60,847 nt of DNA from positions 1 to 60,847 of the IMG/VR virus record IMGVR_UViG_3300020042_009006; one strand, 5' to 3'. Origin of the DNA: a virus. Its lineage: Duplodnaviria > Caudoviricetes. Positions within the stretch are counted from its first letter, which is position 1; each line of letters starts with the position of its first letter. Positions 27,473 to 48,329 of this stretch are shown here, piece by piece. A program made the translations under genes and the position numbers. Below the pieces are notes generated by a model that saw only the letters and a program-made list of their open reading frames with translations, ran no database searches and had not been told where the DNA came from.

Positions 27473-27781
27473 ATGAGGTCAATTGAACTACACGTAATAA
27501 ACACGGCGAGCGACGTGGACACTGCCATAAACAACGGCTTGGCTGAGCCAGAGGAACTGGACTTAGCAGAATGTGCGGCGTGCGCTGACGAGGTCGGACA
27601 GGTTGACGGACTGTTCCACGCGTTCGCATTGCTACTCGACGAACGGGACGTCCCTTGGTTCGTGTGCTACGCGTGCCTAGAAGATGCGATTGACCCTCAG
27701 CCTCTGACGGACAGCACGCTCTCATACATAGATGATGACGGAGAAGAGTTTGAGCAGTTCACCCTTAGAGATGACGAGTAG
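27473..27781 (+). CDS. Acidic hypothetical protein
   Basis: Two CxxC pairs. Confidence 0.55.
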   Translation: MRSIELHVINTASDVDTAINNGLAEPEELDLAECAACADEVGQVDGLFHAFALLLDERDVPWFVCYACLEDAIDPQPLTDSTLSYIDDDGEEFEQFTLRDDE

Positions 27782-27917
27782 AAGTTAGGGTTGCCTAACT
27801 AAACACTTCCAACGAATAGTAAGAAGTCCTGAAATACATTCCCGCTGCCAACTTCGCACGAAACTTCGCCAGCCAAAAAATGAAAAATAGTTTTCTGGAA
27901 CTCGCCAAAAAATAAAG

Positions 27918-27946
27918 TTGCGTCAAAAATAAAATCGTGCTACCTT
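27918..27946 (+). promoter_or_regulatory. SigA-type promoter; similar ones at 28598, 30333, 32412, 33977, 35723, 37169, 49070
   Basis: TTGCGT-17-TACCTT with extended -10 TG; the others are TTG(C/A)NN-16/18-T(A/T)NNNT. Confidence 0.7.
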
Positions 27947-28003
27947 TCTCTAAGCAACATTTCTTTATAGAGAGAGGACACCAAAATCCACACGATACAA
28001 CTA

Positions 28004-28567
28004 ATGCTCGTAGAGGCAGATAACGCAGTAGGGGCTTTTCAGCAAGTAGCAAGCAAACTAGACGAGGGCGAGCCACGCTGGTCTGATTGGCACGAGGCAG
28101 TAAATGACCCAAGCACTCTCAACTTTGCTGGTCGCTGGTCAGGGGAAGTTTTTATGACCCCAGAGCAACTAAAAGCAAGAGATGAAAAACAAGAAGTAGA
28201 TGTATCTGAAAATCCAAACTACCTACGCTTTTCAGACGACCCTAATCTTGCTGACGAAGTTATCCAGCGTTTCATCTCTTATCGTATGAACGAGATTGAG
28301 AGCATAAAGAAAACTCTCGCAACTGACTACGCCAGCATTGACCTAATGTCTTATCTCTATGACCCAAACAAAGAGCCAGACTTCCGAACAACAGGTATGG
28401 GTCTTTACTACATAAAGAAACTTGTATCTCTTTATGGAAACGATTGGACTTCTGATACTGCTATCTACGACTTAGAGGATTGGAACGCAAGCCTCACTAC
28501 TTTCTATAAGCGTGTCCAAAATAACCCAGAGCGTCAGTTCCTAATACCTGTTGATTTTCACCATTAG
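28004..28567 (+). CDS. Hypothetical protein (possible upstream in-frame ATC start at 27986)
   Basis: WSDW..AGRWSG and VDFH motifs; AGAGGA RBS lies 7 nt before ATC 27986. Confidence 0.7.
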   Translation: MLVEADNAVGAFQQVASKLDEGEPRWSDWHEAVNDPSTLNFAGRWSGEVFMTPEQLKARDEKQEVDVSENPNYLRFSDDPNLADEVIQRFISYRMNEIESIKKTLATDYASIDLMSYLYDPNKEPDFRTTGMGLYYIKKLVSLYGNDWTSDTAIYDLEDWNASLTTFYKRVQNNPERQFLIPVDFHH

Positions 28568-28680
28568 CGAACAAAGCAAAAAACTTTTAGAAAGTGCTTG
28601 CGAAAACTAAATAGTCGTGTAAAGTCAGATGTATTGGAAAACTCCAATGAACCAAAAACCAAGTTAGGACGAAAAACAAA

Positions 28681-29193
28681 ATGACCCCAGAGTTCGGAAC
28701 ACTAGACCCAGAAATGGCAGAGGCAGTAGCAACTGCTGAAACTATGGGTTCTAGCAACGCACCAAAGGTTGTAGGAAAAGGTATCTACCTAGAACTACAC
28801 ACAGCAGACGAGATGAACACCACCCAAGTTCTGATTACCCCAGAGGGTATTGACGAAAAGGGTAAGGCAGTATCTATGGCTATTATCTATCGCACCATTT
28901 CAGAGTGGTCGCCTCGCAGACAATGGCGAGTAAACTTTGTGCGACCAAAGGCAGAGAAGTCTGCCCCAGAGAACACAACTGAAATGTTGGCAGAAGTAGT
29001 GAAGTTCTTAGAGCGTCAGATGATGTATTCTGCTGACCTAACACTACGCAACAACACTCCTATCGTTTTTGAGGTAAGCAACATTGACCTCGCAGATGTA
29101 GCAGAGTGGAAAGCACCAGCACCAGCCCTACGCAGACTTGCCAAAGCAAGAACAGCAGTAGGTTTCCCAACCGAGTTTTACAAGAACCACTAA
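28681..29193 (+). CDS. Hypothetical protein
   Basis: Own promoter and AGGACGAA RBS. Confidence 0.7.
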   Translation: MTPEFGTLDPEMAEAVATAETMGSSNAPKVVGKGIYLELHTADEMNTTQVLITPEGIDEKGKAVSMAIIYRTISEWSPRRQWRVNFVRPKAEKSAPENTTEMLAEVVKFLERQMMYSADLTLRNNTPIVFEVSNIDLADVAEWKAPAPALRRLAKARTAVGFPTEFYKNH

Positions 29194-29219
29194 GTCATAA
29201 GAGAGGACGAATAACTAAA

Positions 29220-30230
29220 ATGACTACAACAACTGAAACAACAGCAACCAGCAAACTACACGCTGACCTTGATGAACTAATCAAGGGTGTAGTTCTACAC
29301 AGCACTAAGACAGAGGCTATCCCTGCTATTATGGAAACGCTAATGCCTATCGCTGGTCGTGCGAACCTGCGAGCAAAAGCAGGAACAGCAAAACCAAAGA
29401 CAGCAAAGGCGACCAAAGTGGTAGAACCTATGATTGGCGAGAGCCAATACCTGCGTCCAAATGGACAGGCTTACTATTCTCGTATGTGGGGCGAACACTC
29501 CGACATTGAGGTTCTAAGAACTGCGAGAGCAAACAAGAAGTTCATTTTGCTCTATGGAAGTCCGGGCTGTGGTAAGACAGCACTTGTTGAGGGTGCGTTC
29601 CCAGACGAACTTTACACCTTGCTTGGAACAGGCGACACCGAAGTTTCAGACTTCGTAGGTGGCTACATACAGACACCGAGTGGTGGCTTTGAGTGGGTGG
29701 ACGGAGTTCTGACCAAAGCAGTAGCAGAGGGCAAGGTTCTCTTGATTGACGAAGTTGGTCTGATTGACCCAAAGGTTATGTCTATCGTTTATGGTCTTAT
29801 GGACGGACGAGATGAACTAACTATTTCGTCTAACCCAGAGCGTGGCGTAGTAAAAGCCCAAGAGGGTTTTTATGTAATCTGTGCTACCAACCCGAACGCT
29901 CACGGAGTGCGTCTATCAGAGGCACTTCTATCTCGTTGCCTAATCCAAGCAGAAATGACTACTGATTGGACGCTTGCTAAGAAGTTGGGCGTTCCAGCAC
30001 CAGCAGTTTCAGCAGGTATGAACCTCGCTAAGAAACAACTAGCAGGTGAAGTATCTTGGTCGCCTCAAATGCGAGAACTCCTAGCGTTCCGTGATGTATC
30101 AGAACTCTTTGGTATGAAGTGGGCGATTGGAAACTTGCTTGCGTCAGCACCAGAGATTGACCGAGTTGTGGTCGCTGATGTATTCCGTAGAGTGTTCGGT
30201 GATGATGATTGCCGACCAGCAAAGATTTAG
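29220..30230 (+). CDS. MoxR/CbbQ-NorQ-like AAA+ ATPase
   Basis: GSPGCGKT Walker A, LLIDE Walker B, ATNP, ALLSR. Confidence 0.9.
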   Translation: MTTTTETTATSKLHADLDELIKGVVLHSTKTEAIPAIMETLMPIAGRANLRAKAGTAKPKTAKATKVVEPMIGESQYLRPNGQAYYSRMWGEHSDIEVLRTARANKKFILLYGSPGCGKTALVEGAFPDELYTLLGTGDTEVSDFVGGYIQTPSGGFEWVDGVLTKAVAEGKVLLIDEVGLIDPKVMSIVYGLMDGRDELTISSNPERGVVKAQEGFYVICATNPNAHGVRLSEALLSRCLIQAEMTTDWTLAKKLGVPAPAVSAGMNLAKKQLAGEVSWSPQMRELLAFRDVSELFGMKWAIGNLLASAPEIDRVVVADVFRRVFGDDDCRPAKI

Positions 30231-30393
30231 TGGTTCGTCCTACTAAATCGGGGAGTGCCGAGTTTCCCCACTTGGCACTCCCCACCCTAAAAACTTCATA
30301 AAAACTATTTTTCATTTTTGCTAGAAATGAACTTGCGTAGAAAATAAATCTGTGCTTTACTTATCTTGTTAGCCTAACGAAAGGACAAAACAA

Positions 30394-32220
30394 ATGGCTC
30401 ACTATGTATCACGACTAGACACACGCACCAGCACTACTCCCCCAGAGTGGTTGGCTACTTGCTCACAGATTGGGCAGGTTGTAAATGCTTGGGCAGGTCG
30501 CCACGACCTAGTTGTTTATGCTGGCTCTGACGCTGGCTATGGACATACTGCTTGCTTTATCAAATCGTCTGCTGAAATAGAAATCAACATACCTATCGCT
30601 TTTGGCGAGTGGGCAACCCCAGCGTTCGTTGGCGATTTCACAGACAGAGCCACGCAGTTTGATTGGGCTAATGCCACAGGCGTTATCTACCACGAGGCTT
30701 TACACGCTCGCTATTCAGAGTGGGACATTGAGGCATTAGAGGCTATGCCAGAACAAGTGTTCTCTGTGTTCTCTGTATTGGACGAGGCTCGCATTGAGCG
30801 TTATGGCGTAATCGCTATGCCAGAGAACCAGCCCCTACTAAGAGCGTCTGCTATGAACCTTGCTCTGGGCGACCTTGATGATAAGGCTATTGCTGAAATG
30901 TCTGATGTTCGTCAGGTTGCGTTTGTCTGTGCTTTGGCTATGGCGAGAGTGGACGCTGGCGTTCTAAAACTCTCTGATGTTCGTGCGACCTACGACAAAG
31001 TGATTGAGGTCATTGGTCAGGAACTCTTTGATAACCTACGCTCTATCTGGGTTGAGTTCCAGAAACTACGCACTAGCGAAGTTGAGCGTGGTCGTGAACT
31101 TGCTGAAAAGTGGTTGGCACTTCTAAACGAGGCTGACCCACAACCAGAGGGGGGCTGTGAGTTCCCTAGTGGTGAGGGTGAGGGTGAGGGTGAGGGCGAA
31201 CCAGACCCAACCAAGTCAGGCAAAGGCAAAGGCAAGTTCCTCAAAGAACTCAAAGACGCTATGAACGAGGACGCAGACAACTCTGCTACTGATGTTGAGC
31301 AGAGCCTACAAGACCAGCAGGGCAAAGAGGAACAGCAGAAAGAACTCAAAGAGCGTGGCTCAAAGAGCGAGCGTCAGGCTAAGGCTAAGAAAGAGGCTGG
31401 CAAAGTTTTCTCTAACTCGTCAAGTGGTGGAACAGGAACTACCTACTCCACGCTACAAGAACAGCGTTCGCCAAAAGGCAACGAACGAGCAAGTGCTGTT
31501 CGCCTAGCCCAGATGTTGGACAAGGCAAAGTATCGTGAGCGTTCTATCACCGAAGTCAAGAGCGTTCTGCCACAAGGTCGTCTGAAAACTCGTATCGCTA
31601 TTCAGAACTCGGCTATGAAGTCAAAGGGTATTCACTCGGAACTTCCAGCGTGGCGACACACTAAGCGTAAGCATACTGACGACCCAACTCTCTCTATCGG
31701 AGTAATGGTGGACATTTCAGGTTCTATGTCGTCTGCTATGGAAAGTATGGCTACTACTGCTTGGGTTCTATCAGAGGCAGGTCGCAGAGTTCAGGCGAGA
31801 ACTGCTATGGTCTATTTTGGTCAAGATGTATTCGCAACTCTCAAAGTTGGTCAGAAGTTGGAACAGGTTTCGGTATGGTCAGCACCAGACGGAACGGAAG
31901 TTTTTGGTCGTGCCTTTGACGCTTTGGACGGACACCTAAACCTCGTCTATGGCGAGGGAGTGAAGTTGCTGGTCATTGTGTCGGACGGACACTACACAGG
32001 CAACGAAACACAGAACGCCAAAAACGCTATCAAGATGTGTGCCGATAATGGCGTGGCTGTTCTCTGGCTCGCACCGAACACAGGTTGGTCTGGTTCTATG
32101 GGTGGAACGATTGTCGGTCAGAACGGAGTGGTCGTAGAGAACCTAGATGTGAACGAGATTGCTAATGTGATTGGTAAGTCTGCGACCAACGCTCTACTGA
32201 AAGTTGCGTCTGGTATGTAA
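30394..32220 (+). CDS. vWA-domain partner protein (CobT-like) with N-terminal HEXXH
   Basis: YHEALH, EARIE, acidic GEGE linker, VDISGSM MIDAS, VSDG. Confidence 0.85.
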   Translation: MAHYVSRLDTRTSTTPPEWLATCSQIGQVVNAWAGRHDLVVYAGSDAGYGHTACFIKSSAEIEINIPIAFGEWATPAFVGDFTDRATQFDWANATGVIYHEALHARYSEWDIEALEAMPEQVFSVFSVLDEARIERYGVIAMPENQPLLRASAMNLALGDLDDKAIAEMSDVRQVAFVCALAMARVDAGVLKLSDVRATYDKVIEVIGQELFDNLRSIWVEFQKLRTSEVERGRELAEKWLALLNEADPQPEGGCEFPSGEGEGEGEGEPDPTKSGKGKGKFLKELKDAMNEDADNSATDVEQSLQDQQGKEEQQKELKERGSKSERQAKAKKEAGKVFSNSSSGGTGTTYSTLQEQRSPKGNERASAVRLAQMLDKAKYRERSITEVKSVLPQGRLKTRIAIQNSAMKSKGIHSELPAWRHTKRKHTDDPTLSIGVMVDISGSMSSAMESMATTAWVLSEAGRRVQARTAMVYFGQDVFATLKVGQKLEQVSVWSAPDGTEVFGRAFDALDGHLNLVYGEGVKLLVIVSDGHYTGNETQNAKNAIKMCADNGVAVLWLAPNTGWSGSMGGTIVGQNGVVVENLDVNEIANVIGKSATNALLKVASGM

Positions 32221-32473
32221 AAGAACTCCGTTAGCAGATTGAGCAACTGCCCCCCAACTCTCGCTCTCTGCTAACGGACTAGAACCCCCGATACTTTTTA
32301 TTGTCCTTTCTTGTATCGGGGGTTCGCCTTTATCTGGGTTAGGTTTTCTGGAAACTATTTTTCATTTTTACAAGAGAGATTAGACACACCGAAAAAAGTT
32401 TTGATTAGGTATTGCGTATTCGTGAAAAGTGTGCTTTACTCTTACTAAGCACAAACGAAAGGACGAAACCAAA

Positions 32474-32755
32474 ATGTGTGAAACTTGCGAACAGAACATA
32501 GACGAGGCAGACGACCGAGAACTGCTACTTCTATCGCTGGCTATGATTGGTGGCTTAGTTGAGAACTATGTTGAGGAAGGCTACTGCGACCCTGTGATGT
32601 ATAAGGCTGTGAAGTTGGCAGAGCGTATCACCCTCAAACTAGGGATTGCTGAAATCACCGAGAAGTTTACTTTCCTGAAAATCCAAGCAGGGGAAATCAT
32701 TGAGGCAACTATTGAGCGTGAGGGTCTTGACCTCAAACGAGAGGATTGGTCATAA
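32474..32755 (+). CDS. Hypothetical protein
   Basis: GAAAGGAC RBS. Confidence 0.65.
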   Translation: MCETCEQNIDEADDRELLLLSLAMIGGLVENYVEEGYCDPVMYKAVKLAERITLKLGIAEITEKFTFLKIQAGEIIEATIEREGLDLKREDWS

Positions 32756-33558
32756 TGCCAAATTGGGTTTACAACAGCGTTTCTGTGTATGGAACAAAAG
32801 AAACTATTGAGGCGTTCTACGAAAAGGCGATTGCCCCACACCCTGAAACTTTTGACGCTGAAACTAAAAAGGTTGTCTATACAGACAAGCCAGAGTTCTC
32901 GTTTTGGAACTTTGTTTCCCCACCACAAGACGCAGTAGAGAGTGGCGAATACTTTGGCACTCACGGCTGGGCTGACGGCGAGAAAAAGGGTGATACCCCT
33001 GTGAATTGGTATAATTGGAACAACGATAATTGGAACACCAAGTGGGACGCTTGTGATGTTTATGGCGAAACAACTATCAACAAAGACGGAACTGCTGAAC
33101 TAAGCATTTCTTACAACACGGCTTGGTCTATTCCCGAACCTGTTATGACGGCTATGGTTGAGCAACACCCAGAACTAACTTTCCATTTTTCGTGTGAAGA
33201 AGAACAGGGTTGGGGTGCTGACTATTCAGGCACGGACGGCGAGTTGGTGGAAACCAAATCTTGGGACATACCCGACAGCCACTCCGACTATGTAGAGCGT
33301 GATAATGAGGACGGCTGTATCTGCTCTCACTATGACGACGAGGACGATTGGTATGCCGATTGCCCAAGAGAAACCAAAGAGTTCTTTGTAGAGATTACAC
33401 GGACTTACAAAGTCATAGCCAAAGACGCTGAACAGGCGTGGGAACTAGCAAACGATACTGCTGACGGCTTGGAACTACAAACGGACGAAACTACCTGCGT
33501 GGTCAAGAACGAGAACGGACAGCGTTTGTATCCGATAGCAGAGAACGGCGTGGAGTGA
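32755..33558 (+). CDS. DUF1281/YubB ferredoxin-like domain protein
   Basis: MPNW, WYNWN..NWNTKWDA, TAWSIP. Confidence 0.75.
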   Translation: MPNWVYNSVSVYGTKETIEAFYEKAIAPHPETFDAETKKVVYTDKPEFSFWNFVSPPQDAVESGEYFGTHGWADGEKKGDTPVNWYNWNNDNWNTKWDACDVYGETTINKDGTAELSISYNTAWSIPEPVMTAMVEQHPELTFHFSCEEEQGWGADYSGTDGELVETKSWDIPDSHSDYVERDNEDGCICSHYDDEDDWYADCPRETKEFFVEITRTYKVIAKDAEQAWELANDTADGLELQTDETTCVVKNENGQRLYPIAENGVE

Positions 33559-33761
33559 TGAGCGAACAGGTGATACGGATACGGCTTGGTCATACAAGCG
33601 ACCCCTACACAGAACTAACGAACGGCTCGCTTGGAACGAAGTTGGGTGAACGCATTGACCCCTACGGAGATTTGATTGTTCGTGTGAAGTGGGACAATGG
33701 TTCGTCTATGAGCCTGATTGACGGACACGATAGTTGGACGGAGTTCGTGGAAAATGATTAG
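33555..33761 (+). CDS. DUF4314-like protein
   Basis: DPY..G..GT..D..V.WDNGSSMSL..D. Confidence 0.6.
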   Translation: MMSEQVIRIRLGHTSDPYTELTNGSLGTKLGERIDPYGDLIVRVKWDNGSSMSLIDGHDSWTEFVEND

Positions 33762-34051
33762 CACCAAGACGGGGAATACCCTGCTGGAAACGGAACTTGA
33801 TTGCCGAGAGTGTGGTGCGATAGTCGTGGACTTCTATGAGGTTGAGGGAGTTTCAGACGGACGAGGATACATAAGTTGTTATGAGTGTGGAGAGATAGCC
33901 GAAGTTGAGATTGAGTGAAGTATTTTTCATTTTTACAAGTGAGATAAAAAAAAATAAAAAAACTTGTGAAATGAACTTGACTTATCAGAACTACCTGTGC
34001 TTTACTTATAGAGCAACACACCCAACGACAATCTAACGAAAGGCAAGTCCA

Positions 34052-34423
34052 ATGGGAAACGCAACTAAGAACCAAAGCACCACCACTATCAGCACCACAA
34101 CTCCAAATGTGGTAGTCCTGAAACCAGCACTCCAAAAGCAAGTAAAGAACTTGCGTGATGGGCGTGATTTAGGCAAGCAAGCAAAAGAGATGAGCGAGAA
34201 CGCTCGTCAGGCTCTACTTGACGCACTTGGCTCAATCGCCTCTGACCTTGTTGGAACTGACGCTAAGGGTAAGCGTCTGATTGCTGTAAAGGTAATCCCC
34301 TCGTCCGAAAAGATTGACTTTGAGCGTATGGCAGTAGAGAACCCAGAACTCTACGAACTTGTCCAGACCTACAAAGTCGCCAAAGGTGCTGGTCAGCCTA
34401 CTCTGCGAGTAGATGTTCTCTGA
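34052..34423 (+). CDS. Hypothetical protein, paralog family A
   Basis: IDFERMAVENPELYE, similar to 41762 and 46936. Confidence 0.7.
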   Translation: MGNATKNQSTTTISTTTPNVVVLKPALQKQVKNLRDGRDLGKQAKEMSENARQALLDALGSIASDLVGTDAKGKRLIAVKVIPSSEKIDFERMAVENPELYELVQTYKVAKGAGQPTLRVDVL

Positions 34424-34609
34424 CCAGAACTAGCAACACCCCTATAACTAAATAATCCCCTTTCCGAATAACGCTGGCAGACTTCCTATCGTTTGCCAGC
34501 GTTATTTTTTATCTGGCGATTGGGAAAACTATTTTTCATTTTTACAAGAGAAATAAAAAACACACGAGCCTACTTGTGCGAAGTTGCTTATACCTGTATA
34601 GTCGCTTGT

Positions 34610-35074
34610 ATGAATACAACTTTACTTTTTATCCCCATTGTCTATCTACTAGCAGTTAGCCTACCTATCGTTTTCGCTGACCTGCGTGTAGCACGAGTGC
34701 CTAACAAATACACTCTCCCTGCTCTCTACCTGTGGCTAATCTGTTCTACCACCTACGCTGTTCTATCTGGCGAGTGGCTTTGGTCGCTTGTGCTACCTAT
34801 CATCTTTGGAATAGCGACTTTGCTTGTTGGAGTTTATTTCTCTGGCAAGGGAACTCTGGGTATGGGTGATGTGAAGTTGCTCGTCTTTATGGGTCTATCT
34901 CTATCTTGGAAGTCTGCTTGGGTCTGGTTGCTACTCCCTGCTGGCTCGTTGCTAATCGCATTTGGGATTTTTCTTTTCTACTACTTCACACGAACAAACA
35001 AACTTTCCATAAGACTTGCCCCTGCTATCTACTTCGTGTATCTTATTCTTACAGCAACACTATTTCTGAACTGA
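34610..35074 (+). CDS. Prepilin peptidase (A24 family)
   Basis: Multi-TM; ADLR..RVPN and GMGDVKL aspartate motifs. Confidence 0.85.
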   Translation: MNTTLLFIPIVYLLAVSLPIVFADLRVARVPNKYTLPALYLWLICSTTYAVLSGEWLWSLVLPIIFGIATLLVGVYFSGKGTLGMGDVKLLVFMGLSLSWKSAWVWLLLPAGSLLIAFGIFLFYYFTRTNKLSIRLAPAIYFVYLILTATLFLN

Positions 35075-35088
35075 AAGGACAACTGAAA

Positions 35089-35379
35089 ATGCTAATGCGA
35101 CACGCACTCGGCGAGGTCTTACGAGAACTCCGAAACGAACAGGGTCTAACCCTGCGACAAACTGCTAAGACTTCTTGTATGGCTCTTGGCTACCTCTCTG
35201 AAATAGAACGAGGACACAAGGAAGTTTCGTCCGAAGTCTTGGACAACTTGGCTCGTGGGCTTGGATACGAAACACACGAGGTAATCATCTTGGCTGGATA
35301 CCGACTAGGTGGCTTGGACAGAGTGCCGAACACACCGAGAGAACTTATTGAGCAATACACCGACTTAGTGGCTCGCTAA
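35089..35379 (+). CDS. ClgR-like XRE HTH regulator
   Basis: LGEVLR..R..QG.TLR..LGYLSEIERG.KEVSSE. Confidence 0.8.
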   Translation: MLMRHALGEVLRELRNEQGLTLRQTAKTSCMALGYLSEIERGHKEVSSEVLDNLARGLGYETHEVIILAGYRLGGLDRVPNTPRELIEQYTDLVAR

Positions 35380-35406
35380 GAACACCGAGAGAATAGGAAC
35401 GAACCA

Positions 35407-35613
35407 ATGAACGAACTAAGACTATTGACCAGAACCGAACACGAACACCTAGCCGACTTGGTATTCCAAGAACTACGCAAAGCAACTCACGAGGACACTA
35501 AGCGTATGTGGTTATCTATCGGGGACAAGATTGACGCACAGGTAATCCGAGAGGGATACTCCAACGCTGACGGACGAGAGAACGAAGAACCAGAGATAGA
35601 CCCGACACCATAA
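35407..35613 (+). CDS. Hypothetical protein
   Basis: ATAGGAA RBS. Confidence 0.6.
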   Translation: MNELRLLTRTEHEHLADLVFQELRKATHEDTKRMWLSIGDKIDAQVIREGYSNADGRENEEPEIDPTP

Positions 35614-35788
35614 TCTTTATTCGGTAGCCCGACCCTCTGGGTCGGGTTATCTTTTTGTCGGCTCGGTCTGGAAACTATTTTTCATTTTTACAAGTGGAGT
35701 AAAAAATAATCACCGACCCTACTTGCGAAAACTTCTAATGTTGGTATTCTTATCTCACGACAAAAACCTACTGAAAGGAAAAAATCAA

Positions 35789-36307
35789 ATGGGTATGGAT
35801 GTCTATGGAAAAAACGCCGTCAATCAAACGGGCGAGTATTTTCGCCGTAATGTTTGGGGCTGGCGACCACTCTGGGATTACTGCCTAGACCAACACGGCG
35901 AACTTGCCGGCAAGGTAGAACACGGACACAGCAACGACGGCGACGGGCTTGACGGCGAGGACAGCGTAGCATTGGCTCGCCTCATAAAGACGGCTATCGC
36001 TGACGGCTCGGCGAGTGCCTACATTGAGAAACGCAACGGATACCTCGCAGGCTTGGAACGACCTGCTTGCGAACTCTGCGAGGGAACGGGTATTCGCTCT
36101 GACCAAGTTGGAGTAGAGAACGGAATGCCTGACCGAGAGTTGCCTGACGAGATGAAAATGCTCACGGGTCGCTCGCACGGGTTCTGTAATGCTTGCTCTG
36201 GTGAGGGTAAGCGAGATGCTTGGGAAACTAACTACTTCCTTGACCTTGACGACCTTGCCGAGTTTGCCGAGTTTTTGGAAAACTCTGGTGGGTTCTCAAT
36301 CTGTTAG
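35789..36307 (+). CDS. Hypothetical protein with DnaJ-like CxxCxGxG repeats
   Basis: MGMDVYG, FRRNVWGWRPLW, CELCEGTG, CNACSGEG. Confidence 0.7.
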   Translation: MGMDVYGKNAVNQTGEYFRRNVWGWRPLWDYCLDQHGELAGKVEHGHSNDGDGLDGEDSVALARLIKTAIADGSASAYIEKRNGYLAGLERPACELCEGTGIRSDQVGVENGMPDRELPDEMKMLTGRSHGFCNACSGEGKRDAWETNYFLDLDDLAEFAEFLENSGGFSIC

Positions 36308-36483
36308 ACCATTTCCTATCAACAGGAAAACACCTGAGCAAGTGTCTAAACTGCTCAACTTTTTTGTCTCTCGGTTTAGGAAACATTTTTCATTTTTACA
36401 AGTGAGATAGAAAATAAACTTGCTGATGTCTGTGGTTGTGATTAGTATGAACTTACATAACAAATAACGATTGGAGAAAAGTT

Positions 36484-37040
36484 ATGAGCGACAACTATCC
36501 AGATGGCTCAATGATGGGTTCTGGTATCTATGCCAAAGAAGTTTCGTATGACGAGTTTGAGTGCGAAAACGAGGAGTGCCTAAAAGAAAATGGTGCTGGG
36601 GAAACTACAACTGACGATTGGGGAAACTACACGATTGAGTGTGAGTTTTGTGGTGCTACCTATCGTGAGAGCAGTATCGCTGACGACAGAGATGATTACT
36701 ACGCAGACCAAGACGACAGAGATGAGTATTACGACTAATGGAATACGACCTATACTCACCTGAACGAAACTTCTCTGCTATTCCTGACCTGAAACTTGTA
36801 AAGATTTCTGGTGATGATAGAGATAGAAGTATCCATTTCCTTTGGCGAGGCGAGGCTCAATGGCTCGCTATGAGCAAGGACAACCACTATGACGATAACT
36901 GCTGGCTGGTAGTCAAGACAGACTACACAGACGAGTTTCAGGAGTTTCTTGACGAGGAACTTGGTGGCTACGATAGCCTAGAAAGCACCTTTGAGTTGGC
37001 TGACCTTATTCCCCTTGATTACGAACTTGTTTTTGTCTAA
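36484..37040 (+). CDS. Two coupled acidic hypothetical ORFs (36484-36738, 36738-37040)
   Basis: One cassette; TAATG coupling. Confidence 0.6.
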
Positions 37041-39241: not shown

Positions 39242-39796
39242 ATGGCTAATACAAACTCACACAAGGCTCTCCCTGAACTTACAGAGCAGAGCGTTCTAAC
39301 ACCGATAAATGCGAACATCACCGAAATCAACTTCGCTCGCCGAGTTGAGATTATGGATAATGGTTGCTGGCTCTGGCACGGAAGTTTCCAACCTGCTAAG
39401 GCTAGTAATGGCTACAAACGCCGACCTTTGCTCTGGTCAGGTCAGGGTCGCCAAAATGGCAAAATGGTATTTGCTCACCGATACGCTTACGAGAGCCGAG
39501 TAAGTGAGTTGCCAAATCAACGCTATTACGCTCTAGAGCAGACTTGCGAACTAGACCTATGCGTAAATCCAAATCATTACGAACTGAAACACCGAGAAAT
39601 CTTTGCTCACAACTCTCACCCTAACTTGATTGCGAGTATCAAGGCTAGACCTAAATGTAAAAATGGACTACACGATAGAACTCCTGAAAATACTTTGATA
39701 CGAAACACAACTCCAACTTGCCGACCTTGCCAAAAGGTTTCTGCCAAAAAAGCGAGCGACAAGTTTCAGGCTAAGAAAAAAGCCAACAAAAAATAA
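39242..39796 (+). CDS. HNH endonuclease-like protein (leaderless)
   Basis: GCWLWHG, AHRYAY, C..LCVNPNH; TAGGAT 6 nt before ATG. Confidence 0.75.
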   Translation: MANTNSHKALPELTEQSVLTPINANITEINFARRVEIMDNGCWLWHGSFQPAKASNGYKRRPLLWSGQGRQNGKMVFAHRYAYESRVSELPNQRYYALEQTCELDLCVNPNHYELKHREIFAHNSHPNLIASIKARPKCKNGLHDRTPENTLIRNTTPTCRPCQKVSAKKASDKFQAKKKANKK

Positions 39797-39963
39797 ACAC
39801 GGAAACTCAAACGCCCAGAGCGAGCGAGGTTGCCTCAGCCATTTTTCATTTTTTCTAGATAGAATGACGACTTCGTGAGAAGTTGTAATAAATGTCTGTG
39901 GTTTGTGATTGACTATCTATGTAAGAGCAACACCCCAAACACCGAATAGATAGGAAAACCGAA

Positions 39964-40365
39964 ATGGCAGTTATAGATTGGGACGAAGTGGAATACGCAC
40001 TAGACGACGCTAAGGCTATCACTTGGGACACTTGCCACAAGATTTATGTTCTTATGGACGACGAGCAGGTTGCCGAAACTCGTGGCTATGGTTATGGTGA
40101 TGAGCCTGATAGTTTCTTTACTTGCGAAGAGAAGACACCGAGCCAAATGCTCTCCATACTAAAAGAGTGGTTTGAGAAGTCCTGTTCCCTGAAGTTTATT
40201 CAGGCAGTAGAAACTAATCACGAAGACGCTAACGCTGGCTATACGAGCCTGATTGAGCAGGGTGCTACCGAATACGAAGTCTGCTGGATTTGTGGCACCG
40301 AAGGTTGCGAAGGTGAGTGCGAAGACGAAGACGAAGACGAAGAAGACGAAGACGAAGAAGATTAG
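39964..40365 (+). CDS. Acidic hypothetical protein
   Basis: GATAGGAA motif; WDTCHKIY; poly-ED tail. Confidence 0.7.
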   Translation: MAVIDWDEVEYALDDAKAITWDTCHKIYVLMDDEQVAETRGYGYGDEPDSFFTCEEKTPSQMLSILKEWFEKSCSLKFIQAVETNHEDANAGYTSLIEQGATEYEVCWICGTEGCEGECEDEDEDEEDEDEED

Positions 40366-40561
40366 TCCAAGTCGCTAGACACCGAAATCCCCCTAGTCAA
40401 AATGGTTAGGGGGATTAGTCTTGCCCAGCACGAACCTTGTTCGTCTAGGCATTTTTCATTTTTTCTAGATGTAGGAAAATAATAATGAAAACACGGAAAG
40501 AAATGTCCGTGGTCAAGGTTATTATTTATGTAGCAACACAAACCAAACGATAGGAAACCAA

Positions 40562-41007
40562 ATGTCCAAGAACACAAAATGCCTAGCCTGTCTAGCAACC
40601 TTTACCAACTCCTACAACTTGTCTTTTTGTGGCGAGTGTGGGGCTGACCAGCAATACCTAATGGAATACCAAACAAACACGGAGAGAACCTTGCCAACTC
40701 AAAACGAACTACTGATTGCTCGCCTAGACGCTCTAATCGCTGAACTAGAACTGACCAAGCAAAACCTAAAAGACCTTGCTGACCTAGTGGGGATTGACCT
40801 GACTACTTCCCCTAGTGGTGATAACTAATGACCAACAAACCAAAAGCAACACCAGAACTATTGGTAGGTCGCCAAGCAAGTTGCTCTATGATTGGCGTTC
40901 AGGGATTTCACGCTATCAAGGCATCAAGCCTAGCCCTAGCGTTCTTTGAGTATCGCCCTGAACACGATTACGATTTCTACTATTGTGGCTGTATTGGGTG
41001 GGACTAG
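40562..41007 (+). CDS. Two hypothetical ORFs (40562-40828; 40828-41007 not in track)
   Basis: GATAGGAA motif; TAATG coupling; second ends YCGCIGWD. Confidence 0.6.
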
Positions 41008-41217
41008 ACCCCCAGACACCGAATAAAAACTTCCCCCCTACTTATTCCAAGGTTCGTAGGGGGGAACTTTTTTGGCTGTCGTTCGTCTAGGGATTTTTCA
41101 TTTTTACTAGATGTATAAAAACTTCATTAGAAGTTGAGATAAATCCAAACCAAAAGTGGTTAGATAGTTATGTAAGCAAAAACGCTTACTCAAGTTAGAT
41201 AGGAAATCTAAACCAAA

Positions 41218-41565
41218 ATGACCAAGCAAGTAATCGTAATCACACCAGAACACGAAGTATCTGTCCAGCAAATGCCAAGCACCAGCCCTGATGAATACAA
41301 CTTTCTAAACACGGCAGTAGCAGGTTGGATACAGGCAGTCGCTCTAGCAGATGACCTAGAAGGTATTACCCTTTGGGTCAATGAAGAAGGTAAGTTGGAT
41401 AACCTGCCCTACAACCCCCTAGCAACTCTCCTTTGGGAAATGTCCTATGGCTTTACTGATGTAATCTGTGGCACAGCAGTCCTAACAGGTGGCACTGATG
41501 ATGAAGGTGAAACACTTCCCCTAACTGATGAGCAGGTCGCCAAAATCTTAGCAGTCGTGAAATAA
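41218..41565 (+). CDS. DUF3846-like protein
   Basis: VAGWIQAV, VNEEGKL..LPYN..A, ICGT. Confidence 0.75.
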   Translation: MTKQVIVITPEHEVSVQQMPSTSPDEYNFLNTAVAGWIQAVALADDLEGITLWVNEEGKLDNLPYNPLATLLWEMSYGFTDVICGTAVLTGGTDDEGETLPLTDEQVAKILAVVK

Positions 41566-41761
41566 CCAAACACGGAAAAGATACTCTGCCAGAAATGGCA
41601 GGGTATTTTTTTGCCCAGCGTTGAGCGAACTTCGTCTAGCCATTTTTCATTTTTTCTAGATGTAAGACCAAAATACAAAGAACTTGTATTTGATGTCGGT
41701 CGTAGGGTATAGAGTGGTCTTACAGCAAAACGCTGAAACCAAAATCAAGGAGATACCAAAA

Positions 41762-42127
41762 ATGGCAACTGCCAAAACAGCCGAGAAGGCAACCAGCAAC
41801 ACCGAGCCTAAGAAGGCTAGAAGCAACAAGAAGGCAACACCAGCAGTATCAGTAGAACTATCAGCAGAAGGCAAGAAGGCACTAGCCGCTTTCCGTGAAG
41901 CCAAGAAGGCAGAAGCCCTAGCCAAAGAGCAGAAGGAAATGGCAGAACTAGCCCTTCGTGAAGCACTAGGCGACCACAAAGAAGGTCTAGTGGAAGGTAT
42001 GGTCGTAGTCAAGGTTGTAAATGGCAAGAACACTCATTTTGACCGAGAACTAATGAAGGAAATCTTCCCAGAAGCCTACCAAGCAACCCTTCGTGAAACT
42101 CTTTACGATTACCTAAGAACTCTCTAA
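41762..42127 (+). CDS. Hypothetical protein, paralog family A
   Basis: FDRELMKEIFPEAYQ. Confidence 0.7.
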   Translation: MATAKTAEKATSNTEPKKARSNKKATPAVSVELSAEGKKALAAFREAKKAEALAKEQKEMAELALREALGDHKEGLVEGMVVVKVVNGKNTHFDRELMKEIFPEAYQATLRETLYDYLRTL

Positions 42128-42314
42128 CACCGAGAGCCAAGCGAACTCCTGAACTTCGGTTCGGGAGTTTCGTTTTATCTTTTTTTGCGTTTCTTGTAGC
42201 CATTTTTCATTTTTTCTAGATACATAGTAAAAAGTGCGACAGCACTTCACACAAAGTAGATAAATGTCGCCCCCTAATGTAAGAATAGAGATACCAAAGA
42301 GATAGGAACTCAAA

Positions 42315-42527
42315 ATGGCAAACCGAAAAGAACTTCAGCAAGTTATCAAGATTGTAGCCAAGCACGGCTGGTCTATCGCCCTAAACAAGAACAACCATTA
42401 CAAGTGGATAGCCCCTAGTGGTGCGTTCTTCTATTCTTCTAGCACTCCAAGCGATAGGCGTAGCCTAGAACGAATAAAGAGAGATTTACGCCGACTAGGC
42501 TTTGACCTGCGAAAACTAGACAACTAA
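42315..42527 (+). CDS. HicA-like toxin/mRNA interferase
   Basis: GW..NHYKW..P.G..STPSD..L...GF. Confidence 0.65.
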   Translation: MANRKELQQVIKIVAKHGWSIALNKNNHYKWIAPSGAFFYSSSTPSDRRSLERIKRDLRRLGFDLRKLDN

Positions 42528-42538
42528 GGAGATACAAA

Positions 42539-42826
42539 ATGGCACTCACTCACGGAGATTACAACTGCGATAGTTGTGGAACTTGGTGCGACCTAGACCC
42601 TGTGGCACTTCTAGGCAGAACCCCTAAACTCTATGGCTTGGAAGACCCCGCTAAAGTCCTAGAACTAACTCACTTCTGGCTCTGTGGCGATTGCTCGCCT
42701 GATTACCCCAATGGTGCTAAAGACTTCTTCACCGAAGATTACTTTGAGATAGAAGAACCCTACTGCTCTGGGTGCGAGGTTGAGCCTGTGCTGGCTTGGG
42801 GAAACTCCTGTGCCTACTGCGACTAA
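42539..42826 (+). CDS. Cys-rich hypothetical protein
   Basis: Four CxxC; AAGGAG RBS. Confidence 0.6.
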   Translation: MALTHGDYNCDSCGTWCDLDPVALLGRTPKLYGLEDPAKVLELTHFWLCGDCSPDYPNGAKDFFTEDYFEIEEPYCSGCEVEPVLAWGNSCAYCD

Positions 42827-43011
42827 CTAAAAGAACTCCCCCTGATAAGTCAGGGGGAACTTTTTTTTCGGCTTTTCGTCTAGCCATTTTTCATTTTTAC
42901 AAGAGAGATAAAAATACTTCGTTAGAAGTAGTTGTAATGTCGGTGGTTTATGGTTTGATAGTTATGTGAGCAACACCGCCCACAAAACTAAAAAAGATAG
43001 GAAGTGCCAGA

Positions 43012-43407
43012 GTGTCCAACGACAACCTAGCAAACCAACTAGCAGAACTACTGAACGAGTTGGAAGAAGTATCAAGCGAACTAAACGACATTGACCTAGA
43101 TGTTGCCAGCGAACTAAAGTCAGCAATAGACGAAGCAGAACAGGCTAAGTCCAACGCCGAAGAAGCAGTCAGCAATCTAGAAGATGTAATCAGCAACCTA
43201 GAAGCAATCTCTCTACCAGACCCTAGCGACCTAGAGAGTGCCACAGACCGACTAGACAAAGCAGTTGCCACAATCAAAGAACTAGCCGAGCAGTTGGAAA
43301 CTCTAGCCCCTAAGTCCCTAACCCTAATCGTCAAGCAGGGTTCGGCAGAGCAGAAGTTTTATCTTCACCCAGACAGCCCAGCCGTGATTGAGATTATCAC
43401 CGAGTAA
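43012..43407 (+). CDS. Acidic coiled-coil protein
   Basis: GATAGGAA motif; heptad pattern. Confidence 0.65.
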   Translation: MSNDNLANQLAELLNELEEVSSELNDIDLDVASELKSAIDEAEQAKSNAEEAVSNLEDVISNLEAISLPDPSDLESATDRLDKAVATIKELAEQLETLAPKSLTLIVKQGSAEQKFYLHPDSPAVIEIITE

Positions 43408-43597
43408 TCTCTCGCTACGAAGAAGTCCCCTTGACCTTAGGAAAGTCAGGGGGATTTTTTTATGCCCAGATTTTTTTGCTTTTCGTGTAGGCATTTTTCA
43501 TTTTTACTAGATAAACTAAACAAAAATGCCAACACGGCATTTTATTTTTTTTTATCTCTGCTACATTGGAACTAGCCAATAGATAGGAGAAACCAAA

Positions 43598-44114
43598 ATG
43601 GCTGAACAGAAAACATTTCCTAGCGTAGTGGAATACCTAAAACAACGAGAGCAAAAACTAGCAGACCTTATAGAGTGGATGTCGGCAACTAACTCCAACT
43701 CCATTGTGGTCAAACTAACCAGAACAGCGTTAGCAGAAGTTAGACACGCTCTACTGATTGCCGAACTAAACGAGCAAAAGACAAAGGAAAACTAAAATGG
43801 CTAAAATCGCAAACTACGAGATAGAGGCACACATCTCGGCACTAGCCCCGTTCATCAACTACAACAGCAGTATTGTTGCTAATCGTGAAAATGGGTTCTA
43901 TCGTGTTTGGCATTGGGAAACACAAATCCTAACTTACAACATCAACACGGGTGTTATAGACCACCTATACTCTCACAATCGCTCTCAAACCACTAGCACC
44001 CTAGTCGGTCGTATCGTTCGTAATCTGCCCCGTCAAGCAGTCGTAAAGTTTCTAGTGGAAACCGAACTTGGCAAGTATGACCGAACTCGTATCGTGAAAA
44101 TGGCGAGATTGTAA
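43598..44114 (+). CDS. Two hypothetical ORFs (43598-43795, 43797-44114)
   Basis: GATAGGAG and AAGGA start motifs. Confidence 0.6.
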
Positions 44115-44306
44115 AAGTCCAAAAGAGATAGCCACGAACTTCGGTTCGTGGTTATTTTTTAGCCTCGTCATCACAAAGGCATTTTTCATTTTTTCTAGAT
44201 GTATAAAACACTTCGTAAGAAGTTGTTGATAAATGTAGGTGGTCGGGTATAGATTGGAAACACGGGATAAGGAAAAGCCAAGTCCCCCAGACAGATAGGA
44301 AGTCTA

Positions 44307-44619
44307 ATGACTACTTACAAGTGCCTAAAGTGTGGTGCTACCACAACAGACCCAAAGCACGCTCTAATCAAGTGGTTCCACGCTAACTGCCCAGCAGAGA
44401 AAGGGGGGAAGTAAAATGGAAGTCAAGTATCCAGAAGTCAAAAAAGTCAAGTTGATTGGTGAAGACGGAAACGCCTTTGCTATTCTTGGTCGGGTAATGA
44501 AAGCGATGAAAGTCGCAGGATTACCGAAAGAAGTCATTGACGCTTACTACACGGAAGCCACAAGTGGCGATTATGACCACTTGCTACAAACCACTATCAA
44601 GTGGGTCAAGACCAAGTAA
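44307..44619 (+). CDS. Two small ORFs (44307-44414 not in track; 44416-44619 GEDGNAF-motif phage protein)
   Basis: GATAGGAA motif; LIGEDGNAFAILG..SGDYDHLL. Confidence 0.65.
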
Positions 44620-44794
44620 AGCCCCGTCAGGTATTCGGTCAATACCTAAAGCCCCCTTGCTCAAAGAGAGCAGGGGGGTTTCCACTTGTCCAGAGAAACG
44701 CATTTTTCATTTTTGCGAGAGTAGGGGAAAAACTTTTTGGAAATCGGGAAAAAATCTCAAACAACTTTAGTTATCTCTAGTGGAAAGGAAATAA

Positions 44795-45316
44795 ATGTTC
44801 ATAGAACGCCCAGAAGACGCAGAGCAAGCAGAACTATTTGCTATGGGTCTAATCAAAGAACCGAAAGACAATGGCACGCTACTCCTTGTCCCTTGTCGCC
44901 ACAAAGTATTCTGCCGAACACACGGAACACTTTGGATACATCTAAGAACCAACAAATCCAAAATCAAAATCAAAACAAGAGAGATACTAGGTAAATGACT
45001 AACCAGAACCCAGACCCAGACCAGAACCCCCTACTGAACCCTAAGTTCCTTGTTGGAGAGAACCCAGACATCAAAGGTTTCCTAGCGTGGCTGTTTGACC
45101 CAGAAGTAGATAAAGCGTTTCAGGAAGCGTTCCCGATTGACGAGAGTGAGCAAGATGAGAACTAAACTAACCCCAGAGCAAATCACCGAACTAGATAAAT
45201 ACCAGACACGGAAAACTTTTGACTTGATAAGAGTTGGTATGGTCTTAGGTCTAGTCCCTTGGTCTAACAAGATTACGATTACTCGCAAAGTTCGCAAACT
45301 GAAAACTGAAATCTAG
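44795..45316 (+). CDS. Three short ORFs (44795-44998, 44995-45165, 45155-45316)
   Basis: GAAAGGA RBS; overlapping start and stop codons. Confidence 0.45.
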
Positions 45317-45494
45317 CCAAGCCTAGCCTAGTAATCCCCGTCATTACTAGGCTCGGCAGGGGTGGTTGGCTAGGCATTTTTCATTTTTCCTAGATGAATA
45401 AAAAAACTTTTGGAAAATGCTAGACACGGCAACTTTTATTTTGTTAGGCTGGTCTTGTTGGAACAATCCAACGCTGAGAGATAGGAAACTCAAA

Positions 45495-45832
45495 ATGAAT
45501 AAGTATGTAATCCGTAGAGCAGTGCTAGGTATCGTAATCACTCCCCTAGTTGCTCTGGTCTGGCTAATCGGTATCGCTGTGCTAATCGGTATGGGTGCTG
45601 AACCAACTGCTAGTGCTAGTCAAGTCTGGGTAGATGGTCTATGGCTTGGCGTGGCAGTATCGGTGGTATTCGCTGGAAGTGTCTGGGGTAAGCGATAATG
45701 GCTAACAAAGATGTCTGGCTAATAGTTGCTTGCTCAATGCTGGTATCTGGCTCGGTAGGTCTGGGCTTTATACTTGGTAGAAACTCCGTCTATCGCAAAC
45801 TGCGAACACGGACTAAAAAATGGCTTGATTAG
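45495..45832 (+). CDS. Two small membrane-protein ORFs (45495-45698, 45698-45832)
   Basis: GATAGGAA motif; TM helices; TAATG coupling. Confidence 0.6.
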
Positions 45833-46070
45833 ATTGTCCTATCCAATCTAATCGGGAGAGATGAAACTCTCTATCGGGGCTAGGCGAAAAGATACCCCCC
45901 TATTTATCGCCTAGCCCCACTTTTATTTTTGCTTTTTCTTTTAGGCATTTTTCATTTTTTCTAGAGTTATGGAAAACTTCGTGAGAAGTTGTAGATAAAT
46001 GTCGTTGGCTGGGTGTAGATTTACTACACGGGATAAATAAAAAAAATCCCCTGAATAGATAGGAAACAAA

Positions 46071-46597
46071 GTGAAGTATTTTCTCGCTGGACTAGGTGCT
46101 TACTCAATCGGGGTTGGCTCTCTATCCTTTATGGAACACAACCACCCGAACTCTCTGCTGGTCGGTTGGTTCTTGGGCCTGCTCTTGCTGGTCGGCTCTA
46201 TGGCTCTATTCTTAGGTGGTAAGAAGTAATGACTACTAATGAAGACAACCTAATCACAATCCCTATTAGCATTGACCGAAACTTGCTCTGGCAATCCACC
46301 TTTGGTGGTGGCTGGGAACACTCGTCTTGGTGGGTAGGGCTGAAATACGGAGTTGGTGGCGATTGGGACAAGATTGGCGACGGAACTTTTACTCTAACTG
46401 CCTGCGACCCTGATGATGATGACGAACCTGAAGTCAAGAAGACCCTGACCATAGATGACCTTGCTCGTGCTTGGGGTGTGGCTCTTACAGAGAACTACCA
46501 CCACTGCGGGCAACGCTGGGACTTGGAAGACCCTGACCATTGTGTAAGCGACGGAATACTCCAACTAGCGTTCTTCGGTGAGATTATCTACGGATAA
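46071..46597 (+). CDS. Small membrane ORF (46071-46229) plus hypothetical protein (46229-46597)
   Basis: GATAGGAA motif; second ends D..LQLAFFGEIIYG. Confidence 0.65.
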
Positions 46598-46787
46598 CAA
46601 CACGGCCTCAAAAAAATCTCTCGGCTTCGGTTCAGGGATTTTTTTTGATTATTTTTTTTGTTTGTCTAGGCATTTTTCATTTTTACAAGAGAAGTTGAGA
46701 AACTTCTAGAAGTTGTTGATAAATGTCGGTGGTCTGTGGTTGACTTCTTATGTAGGCAGAAATGCTGAATGATGATAGGAAGTCAAA

Positions 46788-47268
46788 ATGACCACTCCAA
46801 TTTGTAGCGATTGCGGAAACTTTATTGCTGGTAAAGTTTTCCAAACTCTATCCCCTTACACAAACTCTAAACTCTGTGGCAAGTGCCACGCTGAAGAACT
46901 AGAGATGACCATTACAGAAGAACAGGAATAAACCAATGACCACAAACACCGAAACCAACACGGCCAAGGCTACGCTGAAAGTCGTTGCCCTGATTGACGA
47001 ACTAACTGATGTTCGTGCCGAGATTACTCGCCTTGAGAAAATCAAGACTGCCCTAACTGCCGAAGTCAATGAAATCTTTGATAAGGCTGGCGTTGATACT
47101 CTGGTTCATCGCAACATAGATGTTGCTCGTAGAGATTGGCGTGAGCGTTCTGGAACTGATGAAAAGAAGTTAGCCGAGATGTTCCCCGAAGTCTATGAGC
47201 AGACCCGCAAGACCACTCGCTACTCCGTCCTAGTGTCGCTCTATCGCAAGGCAGTCGCCAAGAAGTAG
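46788..47268 (+). CDS. Zinc-finger ORF (46788-46931) plus paralog family A protein (46936-47268)
   Basis: GATAGGAA motif; TDEKKLAEMFPEVYEQ. Confidence 0.65.
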
Positions 47269-47447
47269 AGCAACACCGCTGATCAACAAACTCCCGATTA
47301 GTCGCAAGGCTGGTCGGGAGTTTTTTTGGTCGGCTTTTGGTCTGGGCATTTTTCATTTTTTCTAGATGACTGGGGAACACTTCGTTAGAAGTGGAAACCC
47401 TGTTTGTTTTTTGATAGGCTGAAACTCCAAACGAGATAGGAACTCAA

Positions 47448-48063
47448 ATGTCAAAAATCGCAAACCCTTACAACAACTTCTCTGCTGAAACTCTTGGCTA
47501 CGCCATAGAGGAGGCTTATCGCCAACTCTCTCTGGGTGGCAACCCTGACCGCCTACTCCCTATGATTGAGCAGATGAGCGAGGTCTTAGAGCGTAAGCGT
47601 AAGACTGACTACTGCCAACACGGCGTTTTTCTCTATGGAGATGTTTCTCCGTCTTGCTGGGAGTGTGAGGTCTAATGGCTCTCAACAAGGCTGAACAGGC
47701 TAGGGCTAGGGCTGAACGCTCTGCCTTGTCCCTAGTCCTGCGTGAGCGTGCTAGAAGCAACGCTTCGGGGGTTCACAATAACAAAGGTGCTAGGCGTGCG
47801 AGAACTCGCTCTGCTAGTATCGCTAAGGCTGTATCTCAATGGAAAGTAGGTTCGTAATGCGTTGGTTCTGGTTAGGTCTTTACAAGACTTCACGGGTCAT
47901 AACACGGGTGATGTTTGGGCTGGGTCATAAGGCTCAATGGCTAGGCTGGAAAGCCTATGACAAGGCTGGGCTGGGTGGTGGCGTGGTTCGTGGTCGTAGT
48001 CGTAAGCCTTTGACTGCTATCTGGCGTGCGTGGCGTAAGTTGCTGGCTCGTGTCCAATCGTGA
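47448..48063 (+). CDS. Short ORFs (47448-47675, 47675-47857, about 47857-48063)
   Basis: GATAGGAA motif; TAATG couplings; last two are basic. Confidence 0.55.
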
Positions 48064-48329
48064 AGCGTTGGGGGTCGTGCTTACTTCGCTGGGTGGGTTC
48101 TTCGTATTCTTGGGAGTAGGTGAGTGGGTGCGTCATAACCATTTGGGTTGGGGGTCGCTGGCTTTGGCTGGGCTGTTGTTCTTTTTTGGGTCGTTGCTGA
48201 AACGCTGATTTTTTTTTGGAGTTGGTCTAGGCATTTTTCATTTTTTGGCCTAAACCCTAAAGGGCATAACACGGTGATTAGTAAAAAAAAACTAACCCCC
48301 TCACTCGAAGGGGGTCAGCTTTTTTCTGG

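Follow-up and report, generated by a model that had tools for sequence, protein, structure and literature searches.

Why should one part of a phage genome lack nearly all of the short palindromes that abound on either side of it? The question is raised by a 60,847-bp linear IMG/VR virus record (IMGVR_UViG_3300020042_009006) of an uncultured lake phage, about 45% complete by CheckV, which was analysed over its full length and is referred to here as the window. The original prediction, made from the sequence alone, described some 20 kb (27700-48250) as nearly purged of four-base palindromes except CTAG and TATA. It interpreted this block as DNA that enters the cell first and unprotected, avoids almost all palindromic type II restriction sites at once, and encodes anti-defence functions that protect the rest. 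We find a purged block at 27677-50010, in whose core (27677-48246) 14 of the 16 four-base palindromes are almost gone. Below, we consider which words are lost, whether the same block is found in related phages, which genes it carries, and why the avoidance is confined to it.

A sharply bordered block purged of restriction-like words

When all 16 four-base palindromes were counted in 2-kb bins, 59-160 were found per bin outside 28-50 kb and 6-40 inside, nearly all of the latter being CTAG or TATA. The 14 others together have 13 copies in the 20570 bp of the core, against 857 expected from a second-order Markov model (Markov-2), and their density outside the block is 41.8 per kb. ACGT, AGCT, ATAT, CATG, CGCG, GCGC, GTAC, TCGA, TGCA and TTAA have no copies in the core, each with a Markov-2 expectation of 36-104, and this includes the five words (AGCT, TGCA, CATG, GTAC and TCGA) that had been described as essentially absent. 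The residual copies are one GATC, three GGCC, seven AATT and two CCGG. The lone GATC at 47281 had been noticed earlier and appears in our site lists, and the earlier manual count for 27961-29640 (four CTAG, two TATA and one CCGG) also holds. TATA is lowered in the core (21 vs 69 expected by Markov-2), and CTAG is not depleted. The stray sites bunch within individual genes; four AATT, for instance, fall in 32761-33028.

The left edge is a step, as 53 sites in 26671-27670 give way to none in 27671-28670. The final ordinary palindrome before the block is the CGCG at 27670, and the next is the CCGG at 29562. At the right end, the tail of the block (46176-50010) differs from the rest, since the G/C-only palindromes reappear from 46176 on (13 copies in 46176-50010), whereas the seven mixed palindromes stay near-absent (3 copies) as far as 50010. 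From 50011 the density is normal again, with 39 sites in the following kb. Because the mixed-palindrome purge reaches about 50010, the block measures approximately 22.3 kb. Thus, the sharp left step beside an inverted promoter-like box is as originally described, but the right limit lies further out and the block is somewhat longer.

The depletion is specific to certain words. The fifteen lowest 4-mers in the core by Markov-2 observed/expected ratio are the 14 palindromes and GCGG. Seven of the 16 interrupted palindromes are also purged, with no copies of ACNGT, GANTC, GTNAC and TTNAA, one each of CCNGG and GGNCC, and two of GCNGC, where 49-141 were expected. The other nine are kept or partly reduced; AANTT, ATNAT and AGNCT are among those kept. 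A third-order scan of 5-mers additionally revealed asymmetric words that are lost in both orientations (observed/expected with strands summed): GTCTC (3/41.6), ACTGG (1/26), CTCAG (4/40), TGACA (2/37.6), GCTCC (1/21) and CCATC (4/27). Among 6-mers, a fourth-order scan further showed depletion of degenerate hexamers and of CCTAGG, ACTAGT and GCTAGC.

Neither codon usage nor protein sequence accounts for these losses. In 300 synonymous shuffles of 33 plus-strand open reading frames (ORFs; 13680 nt), the 14 palindromes occurred 575±20 times (minimum 523) compared with 7 observed, and the seven interrupted palindromes 195±12.5 times compared with 2. CTAG was as frequent as expected (81 observed vs 78.5), and this abundant word partly sits in the flanks of the promoter-like boxes. 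Three dipeptides cannot be encoded without a purged word (Met-His, Met-Gln and Trp-Pro), and none of them is present, where 7.6 were expected in total. The Markov-2 and codon-shuffle nulls, which the original prediction had called for, therefore exclude composition and any bias at the dinucleotide, trinucleotide or codon level as an explanation. Avoidance of hairpins or cruciforms was also rejected, as four-base palindromes cannot fold, several palindromes, plain and interrupted, persist, and the loss extends to asymmetric words. The lost words are shaped like restriction sites, and words of like composition are kept. We take most of them to be recognition sites of known type II or IIS enzymes; to our knowledge, no enzyme recognises ATAT, the full TTNAA, TGACA or GCTCC. 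Since the loss is word-specific and the asymmetric words are gone in both orientations, the selecting agent appears to recognise double-stranded DNA.

Equivalent blocks with lineage-specific word sets

Searches of IMG/VR with the large terminase (TerL) gave 441 relatives, five of which (G001, G003, G004, G006 and G007) were examined whole or in large part. Together with the window phage, all six genomes carry a block between a homologue of the gene at 27473-27781 and a module with HTH, NlpC and TerL genes. In the window, the border gene (plus strand) encodes a conserved acidic protein of 102 aa and contains the last ordinary palindrome at 27670, and its homologues stand at the same border in all five relatives. 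The blocks measure approximately 30 kb in G001 and G007, 18 kb in G004 and G006, and 13 kb in G003.

The purged set of G001 matches that of the window phage, and the others differ. G003 keeps CATG, TCGA, GCGC, CGCG, GANTC, ACNGT and TTNAA; G006 keeps AGCT, TCGA, GCGC, TGCA and AATT; G004 purges only ACGT, ATAT, CATG, GTAC, TATA, TGCA and TTAA. The same variation is seen within two genes shared by all the blocks, an AAA_5 (MoxR/CobS-like) ATPase (29106-30230, plus strand) and its conserved partner, a VWA (CoxE/CobT-like) protein (30394-32220, plus strand). In the window phage and G001, nearly all words stand at zero in this gene pair. The G004 orthologues hold 30 CGCG and 35 GCGC in 3.1 kb and no ACGT, ATAT or TGCA, and those of G006 hold 31 AGCT and 21 TCGA and no CGCG, CCGG, GGCC, GATC or GTAC. 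The permitted palindromes of G004 and G006 are heavily used in these genes and seem to fill the space of the forbidden words. TerL orthologues have ordinary word counts in every phage compared. Selection by restriction enzymes would be expected to produce just such a loss, specific to words, symmetric between strands and variable between lineages within the same genes, and we consider it very probable that the block reflects restriction-driven avoidance in an early region. The claim that many type II sites are avoided at once is thus strongly supported by the types of words lost, the null models and the lineage-specific sets.

Among 20 loci with sufficient flank, at least three palindromes are purged upstream of TerL in 13 and downstream in 2. 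Total palindrome density was tried as a survey measure on 27 loci (at most 10% in 3, 25% in 11 and 50% in 16), but it undercounts blocks with partial word sets and was replaced by the per-word counts. Purges of single words over the whole genome are layered on the block in two relatives: GATC has no copies in the 125776 bp of G001, and positions 1-40000 of G007 hold no GATC and a single CCGG.

The block is also found in public data, counting runs with at least 70% of the words sampled from 27001-37000. This share is 70-83% in 16 DNA runs, which come from at least 11 studies and are almost all from fresh water; all are assembled contigs of mixed strains, none being raw reads. Contigs cover the block region in 30/30 bins in a virome and in 29/30 bins in a deep metagenome, and one virome contig spans the left edge (27129-28028). 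Parts of the block are also covered by RNA contigs, in X17 (17/30 bins) and X18 (21/30 bins), but such coverage is no proof of transcription. A megablast search of the block against phage records gave no match.

A promoter-like regulon of small cassettes

The block carries 24 exact plus-strand copies of a 13-nt promoter-like box, ATTTTTCATTTTT, between 30307 and 48245. They are spaced by approximately 0.4-2 kb, and each heads a cassette of small ORFs. The sole inverted copy (27876-27888, minus strand) stands 200 bp into the block from its left edge and points outward, to the left. One further copy (26782-26794, plus strand) is found about 0.9 kb beyond the left edge, so that 25 of the 26 copies in the window are within the block; the remaining 37.6 kb hold none, with 0.29 expected by chance. 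The outer copy heads unpurged genes, and this unit (26782-27781) shows that the purge tracks position and not promoter class. In G001, 38 of 40 box copies are in the block and two are approximately 0.4 kb left of its edge, and in G003 the block holds 14 of 15. Each lineage has its own box variant, those of G001 and G003 being related to that of the window phage. Both the window phage and G001 have the outward-facing box at the inner edge, and G003 lacks it.

A terminator-like hairpin precedes most boxes, and a T-run lies at most 60 nt upstream of 17 of the 24 plus-strand copies. Terminator-like sites are enriched (41 vs 18.6±4.5 in shuffles). A scan for sigma-70-like sites found no enrichment (14 vs 22.8±4.8 in shuffles) and no such hexamer pair in the box. 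This arrangement resembles the PeSLs of T4-like phages, repeats of a terminator and an early promoter which are reported to flank small ORFans and to mediate modular shuffling (PMC2839356; PMC4122927). Both systems have a repeated terminator and promoter-like unit flanking small ORFs. However, the box is not sigma-70-like and comes in lineage-specific variants, and no lack of restriction sites is reported for PeSL regions.

The genes of the block are mostly small ORFans, many of them strongly acidic. Scans of 34 distinct block ORFs (33 against Pfam and 20 against PHROGs, 19 shared) gave Pfam matches to AAA_5, VWA_CoxE, DUF1281_C, DUF4314, Peptidase_A24 and DUF3846, and a PHROGs match to an HNH endonuclease-like cassette gene (39242-39796, plus strand). 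Acidic proteins such as those encoded at 36484-36738 and 39964-40365 have a pI of about 4.1 and up to 31% Asp+Glu; strong acidity is likewise typical of DNA-mimic inhibitors. One acidic cassette protein was compared with the ESM Atlas and gave no usable match.

Cassette content differs greatly between the window phage and G001, which share only short alignable stretches in this region. Contigs from other samples link box to box through back-joints (45315 to 39209 and 45932 to 42878), and a loose contig end at 40464 runs on as sequence found after 48246. These three joints or loose ends come from three runs, and mixed-strain contigs cannot prove recombination events. Contigs that join across boxes nevertheless suggest that cassettes are gained and lost, deleted or duplicated, by recombination at the box repeats.

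The right border (48600-50320) is repeat-rich and largely non-coding, with one ORF (49026-49586) and short direct repeats containing GATAAC/GTTATC. It includes an array of 14 copies with a 10-bp period (48846-48983), which has a strongly T/G-rich strand, is flanked by short repeats containing GATAAC and its complement, and may serve in packaging, as an origin or as a stop element. Similar repeat-rich borders are found in G001 and G007, and little of the kind in G003, G004 and G006; GTTATC is dense only at the G001 border (13 in 1 kb). Four tandem copies of the box core TGTCCAC stand in the array, in the window only, and the word is not enriched overall (8 vs 6.8). The idea of a conserved box core in the array was dropped, as TGTCCAC is unclustered in the relatives.

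The first gene after the block (50322-50849, plus strand) has a C-terminal HTH_23 domain, and its homologue adjoins the block in G001, G006 and G007; its product may be a small terminase or a DNA-binding protein. The large terminase follows at 53040-54440 (plus strand; Terminase_6N/6C domain matches). After the portal gene and a ferritin-like gene, an ORF that runs off the record end (57249-60845, plus strand) encodes a protein of more than 1199 aa with an ADP-ribosyltransferase exoenzyme domain at residues 1013-1193, which may be an ejected virion protein. The metabolic region includes a serine recombinase with Resolvase and Recombinase domains (7604-8308); the phage may be temperate, or the enzyme may act on phage DNA.

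At 232-2841, the window encodes a class II (B12-dependent) ribonucleotide reductase and, after it, a cobalamin adenosyltransferase, and one ORF (10244-10768) has both a WhiB domain and a WhiA-type C-terminal HTH. Among cellular proteins, those most similar to the adenosyltransferase (69-74% identity) are from Ca. Planktophila, Nanopelagicus and Nanopelagicaceae. As the WhiB domain points to Actinobacteria and the adenosyltransferase homologues to the acI group, the host is likely a freshwater acI actinobacterium (Nanopelagicaceae/Ca. Planktophila). No CRISPR-spacer-like match to the block was found in four host-like genomes, and among 301 genomes of the host-like family, 20 had only short matches (78-93% identity) to an acidic-repeat stretch and one other stretch, none of them spacer-like.

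Why the avoidance is confined to the block

The reading we prefer, to which we assign a probability of roughly 55%, is that avoidance is confined to the block because the block enters first. It would be the pre-early host-takeover compartment of a tailed phage of approximately 125-155 kb. Its DNA would meet the restriction endonucleases of the host before the phage has any protection, probably through an entry order like that of T5/BF23, and the remaining genome would enter or become accessible only after functions encoded in the block neutralise restriction. Selection would then strip from the block, and from no other region, all short words that restriction enzymes present among the hosts can cut, and each phage lineage would have stripped a different set. 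The approximately 25 independent cassettes, for which we infer an anti-restriction role, would be transcribed from one phage-specific promoter class and would turn over fast by recombination at repeats.

Several indirect points make the first entry that was originally proposed plausible. The edges are sharp and conserved relative to the flanking genes in all six genomes, the right edge adjoins the HTH/terminase module, and an early-type promoter regulon is restricted to the block. In addition, the cultured TerL relatives Zooman (Microbacterium phage) and GodonK (Gordonia phage) have long terminal repeats filled with small genes upstream of the terminase. Their final 6000 bp are 100% identical to bases 11080-17079 in Zooman and 1582-7581 in GodonK, which suggests direct terminal repeats with full lengths of 17079 and 7581 bp, respectively.

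Published precedents point in the same direction. In T5-like phages, restriction is reported to act only via sites in the first-step-transfer repeat, and the inner border of that region is a long repeat-rich non-coding region. Like the first-step-transfer repeat of T5/BF23 (Tequintavirus), the block is a discrete compartment of small, mostly unknown genes with a repeat-rich non-coding border, and it additionally has step borders and a private promoter class. However, the T5 region spans about 10 kb, with no report of a global purge, whereas in the present phages more than 20 words are missing from 13-30 kb; the host is actinobacterial, and both two-step entry and a terminal repeat are only putative in these phages. 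No homology to T5 genes was seen in the block, though no search was aimed at them. A second precedent is the leading region of Autographiviridae (Murciavirus; T7-like). In Murciavirus, only restriction motifs in the first-injected, highly variable and anti-defence-rich region are reported to decide sensitivity. There, single Type I motifs act within a few kb of the genomes of small podophages, compared with the wholesale loss of words of 4-5 bp across 22 kb of a phage of about 130 kb here. Selective loss of palindromic recognition words is also described at genome-wide level in phages (Rusinov et al., 2018; PMC6286503), and a 4-mer anomaly is described in pandoraviruses (preprint 10.1101/712018). 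Unlike such genome-wide avoidance in phages and giant viruses, the loss here is regional and sharp-bordered and affects nearly all short palindromes together. The principle and genome-wide avoidance are thus known from the literature, in which we found no report of a regional, near-total purge.

Other observations weigh against first entry. Known anti-restriction families were not found in the 34 block ORFs scanned against Pfam and PHROGs. A collapsed terminal repeat predicts a twofold contig depth in the block, and this was not seen; word depth was 4.8-6.9 in the block and 6.2-7.75 in the flank in X13, and 27-49 and 28 in X3, which, with a flank of 1.7 kb and mixed strains, lends no support and is mildly contrary. 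There is no consistent gradient of purge strength along the block across genomes. The terminal repeats of Zooman and GodonK show no 4-mer purge, and the nearest named relative, DSL-LC01 (TerL 72% identical), is syntenic but has no block. In the 129469 bp of DSL-LC01, ATAT and TTAA are absent from every 2-kb bin and AATT is low, a genome-wide avoidance without a block; the DSL-LC01 paper has no occurrence of the term palindrome.

Alternatively, the whole genome could enter at once, and the block would have to stay intact and transcribable in the first minutes, while the rest has another shield (proteins carried in the virion, modified DNA or a compartment that early proteins build) or is mended by recombination repair. 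This fits the coincidence of the block with the early-type regulon and the undoubled contig depth, and the window carries nucleotide- and sugar-metabolism genes that might contribute to DNA modification (dCMP deaminase, ThyX, dNMP kinase/DUF4406, glycosyltransferases and a cytidylyltransferase). However, a linear genome does not normally survive a cut at any position, which means that purging one region is of use only where the others are protected, and modification made during replication would shield the block too. The unpurged box-headed unit at 26782-27781 and the step-like, conserved borders also speak against simultaneous entry, which we regard as unlikely.

The purge could instead record breadth of exposure and not timing, if the block were a hyper-mobile accessory region traded among phages of different hosts. 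The very different cassette content of the window phage and G001, the contig joints between promoter repeats (40464, 45315 to 39209 and 45932 to 42878) and the bunching of stray sites, such as the four AATT in 32761-33028, are compatible with such exchange. Yet the conserved, non-mobile AAA_5 and VWA genes are purged as fully as the cassettes, and in a lineage-specific manner, intergenic DNA is purged too, and the purge ends at fixed flanking genes. This makes mobility a distinctly improbable cause. Even less credit is due to self-immunity, in which short-site nucleases of the phage itself would destroy host DNA and the early block would have to lack their sites until protected. A similar idea is put forward for T5 A1 in a preprint, and the block does contain the HNH endonuclease-like gene. 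However, the more than 20 distinct words purged are far beyond the nucleases of one phage, these words all persist elsewhere in the phage genome, and the word sets differ between close relatives. Finally, an assembly chimera or sequencing artefact is refuted as far as contigs can show, by independent assembly of the block in 16 DNA runs, the virome contig bridging the left edge, synteny continuing over both edges in G001 and equivalent blocks in all six genomes.

Returning to first entry, a more far-reaching version can be put forward tentatively. An abundant family of actinophages in fresh water may carry a landing pad, a first-entering compartment of 13-30 kb with almost no short restriction sites. 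Its edges would mark a two-step or transcription-pulled entry with the outward-facing box as the puller, and its purged words would be a negative imprint of the specificities in the host population. The large ORFs in the structural module of G001 had no Pfam support for a virion RNA polymerase. If this version is true, the imprint includes specificities for ATAT, TTNAA, TGACA and GCTCC, and both entry order and host defence repertoire would be readable from sequence alone.

The block itself illustrates that strong local selection can escape whole-genome avoidance statistics. If the first-entry reading holds, such a purge would provide a sequence-only marker for the first-exposed part of uncultured phage genomes, and the principle known from T5 and T7, that only first-entering sites matter, would extend to a large and widespread group of actinophages. 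The lineage-specific word sets would then report restriction specificities in acI populations that are hard to culture and would predict undescribed enzymes, and the approximately 25 cassettes per phage would be candidates for new anti-restriction and host-takeover proteins.

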